Origin: Escherichia coli
Lineage (GTDB): Bacteria > Pseudomonadota > Gammaproteobacteria > Enterobacterales > Enterobacteriaceae
Length of the DNA: 64,000 nt
Direction: 5' to 3' (one strand)
NCBI RefSeq assembly: GCF_022846255.1
Contig: NZ_AP025682.1
Below are positions 38,211 to 40,776 of the stretch, one piece after another. The notes beneath the pieces were generated by a model. It was given only the letters and a program-made list of their open reading frames with translations. It searched no databases and was not told where the DNA came from. Both the position numbers and the translations under genes were made by a program. Numbering within the stretch: the first letter of the stretch is position 1; every line of letters begins with the position of its first letter.

Positions 38211-39035
38211 ATGGTCGCACCCATTCCCGCGAAACGCGGCAGAAAACCCGCCGTTGCCACCGCACCAGCGACTGGACAGGTTCAGTCTTTAACGCGTGGC
38301 CTGAAATTACTGGAGTGGATTGCCGAATCCAATGGCAGTGTGGCACTCACGGAGCTGGCGCAACAAGCCGGGTTACCCAATTCCACGACCCACCGCCTGC
38401 TAACCACGATGCAACAGCAGGGTTTCGTGCGTCAGGTTGGCGAACTGGGACACTGGGCAATCGGCGCACATGCCTTTATGGTCGGCAGCAGCTTTCTCCA
38501 GAGCCGTAATTTGTTAGCAATTGTTCACCCTATCCTGCGCAATCTAATGGAAGAGTCTGGCGAAACGGTCAATATGGCGGTGCTTGATCAAAGCGATCAT
38601 GAAGCGATTATTATCGACCAGGTACAGTGTACCCACCTGATGCGAATGTCCGCGCCTATCGGCGGTAAATTACCTATGCACGCTTCCGGTGCGGGTAAAG
38701 CCTTTTTAGCCCAACTGAGCGAAGAACAGGTGACGAAGCTGCTGCACCGCAAAGGGTTACATGCCTATACCCACGCAACGCTGGTGTCTCCTGTGCATTT
38801 AAAAGAAGATCTCGCCCAAACGCGCAAACGGGGTTATTCATTTGACGATGAGGAACATGCGCTGGGGCTACGTTGCCTTGCAGCCTGTATTTTCGATGAG
38901 CACCGCGAACCGTTTGCCGCAATTTCAATTTCCGGACCGATTTCACGTATTACCGATGACCGCGTGACCGAGTTTGGCGCGATGGTGATTAAAGCGGCGA
39001 AGGAAGTGACGCTGGCGTACGGTGGAATACGCTGA
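38211..39035 (+). CDS. iclR: Glyoxylate-bypass repressor IclR, 274 aa
   Basis: ORF track 38151..39035; start at MVAPIPAKRGRKPAVATAPATGQVQSLTRGLKLLEWIAESNGSVALTELAQQAGLPNSTTHRLL. Confidence 0.93.
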   Translation: MVAPIPAKRGRKPAVATAPATGQVQSLTRGLKLLEWIAESNGSVALTELAQQAGLPNSTTHRLLTTMQQQGFVRQVGELGHWAIGAHAFMVGSSFLQSRNLLAIVHPILRNLMEESGETVNMAVLDQSDHEAIIIDQVQCTHLMRMSAPIGGKLPMHASGAGKAFLAQLSEEQVTKLLHRKGLHAYTHATLVSPVHLKEDLAQTRKRGYSFDDEEHALGLRCLAACIFDEHREPFAAISISGPISRITDDRVTEFGAMVIKAAKEVTLAYGGIR

Positions 39036-39051
39036 CTTTTTCGCCTCTGAT

Positions 39052-40776
39052 TTATACGAATCGAACGCTAAACCGCTGCCTGCGCCGATACGCATAAACA
39101 TCTTCCACATGCCCTTCACGTATGCGGTTTTGTAGTGCGCGCCAGTAATCAGCGCGGAACAAGTCGGCGTGCATCTCTTCAAATAGCGGACCAATACGCG
39201 GGTCGGCACATAACCAGTGACGGAACTCTTCCGGGAAAACATCGCCCGGCGAGACGCTGTACCACGGTTCGCTGGCAAGTTCGTCTTCCGGGTAGCGCGG
39301 CAGCGGGATGTCGCGGAAATTCACTTCCGTCATGTAGCAAATTTCATCGTAATCATAAAACACCACGCGCCCGTGACGGGTGACGCCAAAGTTTTTAAAT
39401 AACATATCCCCAGGGAAGATGTTGGCAGCGGCAAGCTGGCGAATGGCATTGCCGTACTCTTCAATGGCGTCGCGCAGCTGCTGACCTTCCACTTGTTCCA
39501 GCCAGATATTGAGCGGCACCATCCGTCGTTCGATATAGAGATGGCGAATCACAATTTGTTCGCCGAGATCGGTGATTTTTTCCGCTGCTTCCTGGAGCAG
39601 TAATTCCATTAATGCCGGGGAAATATGCCGCTTCTCCAGCACAAAGTTTTCAAACTCCTGGGTGTCCGCCATTCGGCCCACGCGATCGTGCTCTTTCACC
39701 AGTTGATAGCAGGCACGAACGTGAGCGGCAGACATCTCTTTCTGCGGCGCGAACCTGTCTTTGATGACTTTAAATACCCGATCAAAACCCGGCAACGTAA
39801 ACACCAACATCACCATTCCACGAATACCCGGCGCTTCAATGAACTGCTCATTACAGCCCTGTAGATAAACGAGATATTCGCGGTAGCTTTCGGTTTTAGC
39901 GTGCTTCTGGCAGCCGATAGCCATATACAATTCAGCGGTGGTTTTACCTGGCAGAATTTCCCGTAGCCACTCGACCAGCGCTGCGGGCAGCGGTGCATAA
40001 ACCATAAAATAAGAACGCGCAAAGCCAAAAACAATGCTCGCTTTGGCGGTCGTCGTCAGGCAGGTATCAATAAATAACTCGCCGTCGTCCGTCTGGTGGA
40101 TCGGCAATAAAAATGGCAACGTGCCGGAAGGCGTTATTAGTTTGCCCACCAGCCAGGCTGCCTTATTGCGGTAAAACAGTTCGTTCGCCACCTGTAAATG
40201 ACTTTCCGCGAGGTTGTCTGTCCCCAGCGTTTCCGTCAGATGGCGAACGATGTAATGAATGTCACGGCTTTTATTCTGCCAACGCAGACGCAGCGGCAGG
40301 TCGCTGATAACACGCATCAGCAGAGATTCCCAGCCGTGATCGGGGTGAAAGTCTTTCGCCAGCGGGCGCGGAATGGTACGAAAACGGCGCTCTGGCTGGG
40401 AGCTAAAGATAAAAAGCCGCTCGGGAGTAAGCGAGCGGTGGTCAAATAACCGACAGTACACGGAGTTAAAAAAGCTCTCCGCAATCTCGAAGCGCGGGTA
40501 ATCCGGCAACAGCCGCGTGTAATGCTCTTTGACGCGCAGTAAAAATGCCGCGTCCGTGCTTTGGCCGTTGGTAATGCAGCGCAGTTGCTCCACCACCAGA
40601 CCCACGTGATGATCGTAAAGATGGATACGGTTTTTCATCGCCTGCTGGACAGCATGCCAGTCGGCCTGTTCGAAACGCTGCTGCGCCCCGGAAGTCACTT
40701 CGAGGAATCGACCATACTGAGCGTCGAAGCCTTGCAGAATGGTTTGTGCAATCAGTAATTCCAGGCCACGCGGCAT
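39052..40776 (-). CDS. aceK: Isocitrate dehydrogenase kinase/phosphatase AceK, 574 aa
   Basis: Translation [57 protein letters not shown]...; last gene of aceBAK. Confidence 0.93.

Follow-up and report, generated by a model that had tools for sequence, protein, structure and literature searches.

The stretch of DNA analysed here, hereafter the window, comprises 64 kb of an Escherichia coli genome. In it, iclR and aceK face each other tail to tail, with their stop codons (TGA at 39033-39035 on the plus strand for iclR, TAA at 39052-39054 on the minus strand for aceK) separated by a few bases only (Table 1). An earlier note made on this sequence had placed both stops 16 bp apart, at 39035 and 39052, and its coordinates, spacing and protein tail were all right. 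The iclR gene has 825 nt, the same length as annotated in relatives, and its product scores 569.6 bits against NF008601 (NCBIfam cut-off 380). A longer iclR frame starting from a TTG at 38151 was discarded, being merely the first possible start of the open reading frame lister. The AceK protein reaches 939.5 bits against the NCBIfam equivalog NF002804 (cut-off 488), over positions 8-577 of the 582 of the profile, and is made up of the Pfam domains AceK_regulatory and AceK_kinase (PF20423 and PF06315). It aligns to PDB 3LC6/3EPS over residues 1-573, and the crystallised AceK chain of PDB 4P69, of 568 residues, covers query residues 4-571. The same junction was present in every E. coli genome without arpA that we opened, all with the 16-bp spacer and an annotated aceK of 1,725 nt, and across it the window shares 100% identity with two independent public assemblies. 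Therefore, the structural difference from K-12 described below is real and not a chance pattern.

Table 1. Features at the iclR-aceK junction and at the yjaA site (positions in the 64-kb window)
Feature	Position	Strand	Basis or remark
iclR, repressor of glyoxylate-bypass operon, 274 aa	38211..39035	+	NCBIfam equivalog NF008601
Weak terminator-like hairpin in last iclR codons, then CTTTTTC	39013..39044	+	Consensus scan
16-bp spacer between convergent stop codons	39036..39051	.	15 bp in E. albertii
19-bp segment, very probably ancestral and replaced in arpA-positive strains	39043..39061	.	blastn of K-12 segment and junction alignments
aceK, isocitrate dehydrogenase kinase/phosphatase, 574 aa, tail RFSVRFV	39052..40776	-	NF002804, Pfam, PDB alignment
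AceK.f primer site, 2 mismatches	39431..39450	-	Primer search
Empty yjaA site, 124 bp between yjaB and 5S rRNA gene of adjacent rRNA operon	45635..45758	.	

In K-12, a third gene stands between these two: the locus (L001) contains iclR at 4712-5536 (plus strand), arpA at 5853-8039 (plus) and aceK at 8008-9744 (minus). The earlier note had described an arpA of about 2.2 kb that lies between aceK and iclR and overlaps the aceK 3' end, and this description was accurate, the gene having 2,187 bp (728 aa) and the overlap 32 bp. By blastn, K-12 positions 5400-5543 correspond to 38899-39042 of the window and 8030-8200 to 39062-39232. Between both blocks the window holds the 19-bp segment, which takes in the final 9 bp of the spacer together with the stop codon of aceK, its codons V574 and F573 and one further base, and the counterpart of this segment in K-12 is 2,486 bp long (L001 5544-8029). 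The K-12 insert has a GC content of 36.9%, iclR 54.2% and aceK 52.8%. ArpA matches Toxin_15 (ShET2 enterotoxin, N-terminal region, E = 1.3e-96) and Ank_2 ankyrin repeats in Pfam; in K-12 it is named 'type III secretion system effector EspL4' (espL4) by PGAP. A search of NCBIfam with ArpA returned no family, and a search of the PDB returned designed ankyrin proteins and no other solved relative. The AT-rich composition together with this domain make-up points to horizontally acquired DNA. K-12 is not known to possess a functional type III secretion system.

In the window, tblastn with K-12 ArpA over the whole 64 kb gave no match (best E = 4.2), and the ArpA1.r primer site was absent from the same 64 kb even when 4 mismatches were allowed. 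The claim that arpA is missing here thus holds within the window. The proteins on both sides are closely alike, AceK residues 1-572 of the K-12/O157 arrangement being near-identical to those of the window and K-12 IclR being 99.6% identical (protein). In contrast, the AceK C-termini differ: an alignment confirmed that the protein of 574 aa ends in RFSVRFV in the window, and that of 578 aa in RFSVRYGEMLF in K-12. Reading the sequence of arpA-positive strains, the aceK frame continues into the insert until it ends in YGEMLF and a stop codon, and the last arpA codons (V, R and the stop) are the antisense of the old aceK end. As the frames read across the boundary, the present ends of both aceK and arpA in these strains would come from the insertion.

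To place the two arrangements in a wider frame, one genome per GTDB species was scanned with the AceK of the window, which gave at least 80 loci, and these were then searched with IclR, AceK and ArpA. Among the matches listed, 78 non-coli Enterobacteriaceae species had a complete aceK 3' end; E. albertii was the only other Escherichia in that list, E. fergusonii and the cryptic clades not being included. An ArpA homolog at the aceK locus was found in none of these 78 species. Convergent iclR lies just downstream of aceK in 76 of the 78 species listed, as in the window, and the spacer between both genes has a median length of 62 bp (range -47 to 2,273 bp). Half of these loci (38 of 76) are as compact as the window or nearly so, with 14 overlaps of iclR and aceK and 24 spacers of 1-60 bp. 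Other genera differ from the window in that spacer length varies widely, and so does the AceK end, which falls anywhere between residues 573 and 598 (window numbering) with unrelated sequence after the R-F or R-Y pair in the species listed. Since the family is not conserved past about residue 573, the difference between FV and YGEMLF is most likely neutral, without functional consequence. In this sense, the two AceK lengths of 574 and 578 aa among E. coli strains would be a by-product of the arpA insertion, and neither a truncation nor an annotation error.

In E. albertii, the spacer has 15 bp, AceK ends in RFSVRFV and a stop codon, identical to the window, and the junction aligns to the window column by column with one gap of 1 bp and a few substitutions. 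The 19 bp and the FV end with its stop codon therefore match E. albertii, and a deletion of arpA could not rebuild them. We consider, with a probability of about 0.9, that the empty junction represents the ancestral Escherichia state, in which arpA was never inserted, and that K-12-like strains carry a derived insertion. According to this proposal, the original layout would have been that of the window, with aceBAK and its repressor gene iclR ending tail to tail at a distance of 16 bp. The ancestors of K-12-like E. coli may then have received, in a single event, some 2.5 kb of foreign, AT-rich DNA with arpA, which landed directly after the T-run behind iclR and took the place of 19 bp, among them the two final aceK codons and the stop. 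Afterwards aceK would have run into the insert and gained its YGEMLF end, and arpA would have continued, in antisense, over the former end of aceK and stopped there, giving rise to the 32-bp overlap. According to the literature, the arpA-positive lineage comprises phylogroups A, B1, C, D and E.

The distribution of both states was analyzed in 5,426 complete E. coli genomes. The contiguous junction was found in 1,316 of them and arpA DNA in 4,114, so that the two sets are nearly exact complements (5,430 in sum). Genomes like FELIX_MS533 are compatible with this slight surplus: what is left of the insert there is so short that both flanks are still merged in one match. In every split match among the complete genomes, the break falls at 542/543 of the query (39041/39042 in the window). 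Additionally, K-12, 2012C-4221, PEC1013 and an O111:H8 strain share the same left and right boundaries of the insertion, and the arpA regions of the last three are 96.6-99.0% identical to that of K-12. Given that the boundaries are the same in all arpA-positive junctions examined, a single insertion event seems to account for them. Complete genomes that carry arpA have it in a median of 1 place, and only 1 of 4,117 matches to arpA DNA lay on a plasmid and not on the chromosome. A shorter arpA allele apparently exists in about half of the arpA-positive genomes (2,110 of 4,114, counted as those without a single match covering at least 80% of the query). In the O111:H8 strain, arpA (L092 694-2268) has lost about 612 bp internally and in frame, encodes 524 aa and is annotated as 'ShET2/EspL2 family type III secretion system effector toxin'.

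Two variants of the proposed insertion were also considered. An import of arpA together with divergent flanks was suggested by the identity of only 93.6% between the window and K-12 over aceK-aceA (blastn), but identity in sliding windows showed no gradient toward the junction, and the low value is explained by a single REP indel block located between aceA and aceK (40712-40952), so that this variant was rejected. A pure insertion followed by drift of the aceK tail would need the right boundary to be homologous in both (GCCTCT in the window, GCATCT in K-12). The match there extends to only about 9 of 15 positions; the divergent arpA-positive alleles of 2012C-4221 and PEC1013 added no support for it. 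Because this homology is too weak to call, the conservative description as a replacement of 19 bp was kept.

Regarding the lineage of the window, the nearest complete genomes among the 5,426 are only 97.9-98.1% identical to it, evenly over 48 kb. Among these are JNE120442 (O183:H18, Shiga-toxin-producing) and APEC O2-211 (ST117), both with the contiguous junction. Over shorter regions, identity to the window is 96.5-97.5% for other arpA-negative strains, 95.5% for K-12 and 91.7% for E. albertii. The exact AceK protein is on record only twice, in GCA_005387665.1 (contig BFRP01000183.1) and in an assembly of the reads DRR322657, and in both the DNA is 100% identical to the window. By these sequence comparisons, the window belongs to an uncommon lineage of E. 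coli in the strict sense, outside the arpA-positive group.

The opposite polarity has also to be weighed, in which arpA was once present and later deleted, the junction of the window being the scar. Secondary losses of arpA do occur, as in the K-12-like isolate FELIX_MS533, where an IS1 stands in place of arpA. That loss is unlike the window, however, for it is marked by the IS1, by a leftover piece of the insert and by an altered AceK end, whereas the window retains not a single base derived from the insert and its 19 bp and FV-stop tail match E. albertii position for position. Considering also that arpA is missing at the locus in all 78 outgroup species among the matches listed, such a deletion is very improbable. 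A loss that leaves no scar could be achieved by homologous recombination, if a lineage that was once arpA-positive had its locus reverted by DNA of an arpA-negative E. coli. The locus is indeed mosaic among strains: the arpA-negative EC200461 encodes the IclR protein of K-12 (WP_000226403.1), which suggests recombination around it, and over 7 kb Combat2C1 reaches 98.7% identity to the window, yet it falls outside the best 20-kb matches. Against a reversion in the window itself, its similarity to the nearest arpA-negative genomes stays at 97.9-98.2% throughout the 48 kb and no block of other ancestry stands out at the junction, and the yjaA site, 6.6 kb away, is likewise in an empty state resembling that of phylogroups F and G. 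We regard this possibility as slightly more credible than deletion but still highly unlikely. Finally, abutting genes could arise from a collapsed or mis-joined contig. The recurrence of the same junction in 1,316 complete genomes and in the two independent assemblies 100% identical to the window refutes such an artefact, which we consider practically negligible. An ancestral site that never received arpA thus stands as the preferred reading.

Phylotyping markers were also inspected. The sites of arpA and yjaA both belong to the regions covered by the window; chuA and TspE4.C2, for which no primer sites occur in the 64 kb, and the MLST loci lie outside it, so that the marker reading refers to arpA and yjaA only. 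The profile of phylogroups F and G is arpA-negative, chuA-positive, yjaA-negative and TspE4.C2-negative, and that of typical B2 is arpA-negative, chuA-positive and yjaA-positive. Clermont and co-workers reportedly found in 2013 that arpA is absent from B2 and F, and in their scheme a yjaA-negative, TspE4.C2-positive B2 profile is said to exist as well. In the Clermont quadruplex PCR, arpA is one of the four markers and is amplified with primers AceK.f and ArpA1.r (PMC4322292 Table 1; also PMC7464145). A chuA+ arpA- TspE4.C2+ yjaA+ profile is read as B2 (PMC7464145), and ST117 types as F by the quadruplex, although it has been placed between B2 and F and proposed as group G (PMC6113867). The earlier note was thus correct in presenting the absence of arpA as a recognised phylogroup marker, this being the Clermont locus.

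In K-12, the product of AceK.f and ArpA1.r measures exactly 400 bp. The ArpA1.r site, L001 8019-8038, extends across the right breakpoint (8029/8030) and is placed within the alternative aceK tail. As the window contains no ArpA1.r site, it would yield no arpA amplicon. It follows the Clermont arpA-negative genotype (B2/F/G or cryptic clades) at this locus. Regarding yjaA, the order in K-12 is rrf-yjaA-yjaB, and the K-12 flanks of yjaA lie on the window at 45143-45629 and 45750-45947 (blastn), next to a 5S rRNA gene at 45759-45874 (Rfam). Neither a YjaA match by tblastn nor the yjaA primer sites were found in the 64 kb of the window, which is therefore arpA-negative and yjaA-negative, in agreement with F/G and at variance with the yjaA-positive typical B2. 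Because yjaA is missing too, the F/G side fits better than typical B2, and considering also that the closest complete genomes (O183:H18 and ST117) are arpA-negative, the source lineage is most likely located on the F/G side of the tree. The practical value of this reading is small: the window can be labelled arpA-/yjaA-, which narrows its phylogroup.

The window therefore shows the arpA presence/absence polymorphism in its empty and very probably ancestral state. This polymorphism is already known and ordinary, since the same difference serves the routine phylogroup typing of E. coli; the arpA marker of Clermont (ClermonTyping, PMC6113867) is the same locus and the same polymorphism, with no difference in kind. 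What our analysis adds to the known marker is the position of ArpA1.r across the right breakpoint and the probable ancestry of the empty site. The 'arpA' PCR in fact tests an alternative aceK 3' end, which may serve as a reminder for annotation pipelines. In FELIX_MS533 (L091 2501-3320), 78 bp of the left end of the insert are left and AceK ends in RYGGDAANLLI and a stop codon; the PCR would score this IS1-mediated loss as arpA-negative, even though the background is K-12-like.

The short distance between both genes also raises a question on transcription. The hairpin at the iclR end is kept in K-12, with the left breakpoint of the insertion immediately behind its T-run. RNA folds at the junction on both strands were no better than those of shuffled sequences (z = 0.04 for the iclR-end hairpin and -0.68), and neither the consensus scan nor the folds made a terminator for aceBAK visible there. 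A shared or bidirectional terminator was accordingly rejected, since the weak iclR-end hairpin was the only candidate and the folds did not exceed the shuffles. As no intrinsic terminator is detectable between the genes, some read-through between aceBAK and iclR is conceivable. In arpA-negative strains, aceBAK transcripts might then read into iclR antisense and iclR transcripts into aceK, and the arpA insertion (2.5 kb) might have parted the units, so that control of the glyoxylate shunt would be specific to each lineage. We judge this scenario to be decidedly unlikely on the sequence data. A possible coupling of aceBAK and iclR by convergent transcription is the only new question that the junction raises.

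Other features of the window were recorded. The aceA-aceK spacer (40712-40952) carries a REP-type element, with an Rfam naRNA4 match at 40804-40874, and its block 40712-40809 is 59% identical to K-12. Three further naRNA4/REP matches lie at 8200-8270, 12429-12499 and 20247-20317. In the 20-kb comparison with complete genomes, JNE120442 exceeds the window in length by about 84 bp. Also, a sorbose-type PTS operon is found at about 25519-31316, between rluF and pepE, with the same annotation in JNE120442; it comprises a regulator, an SDR oxidoreductase, the IIA, IIB, IIC and IID components and sorE.
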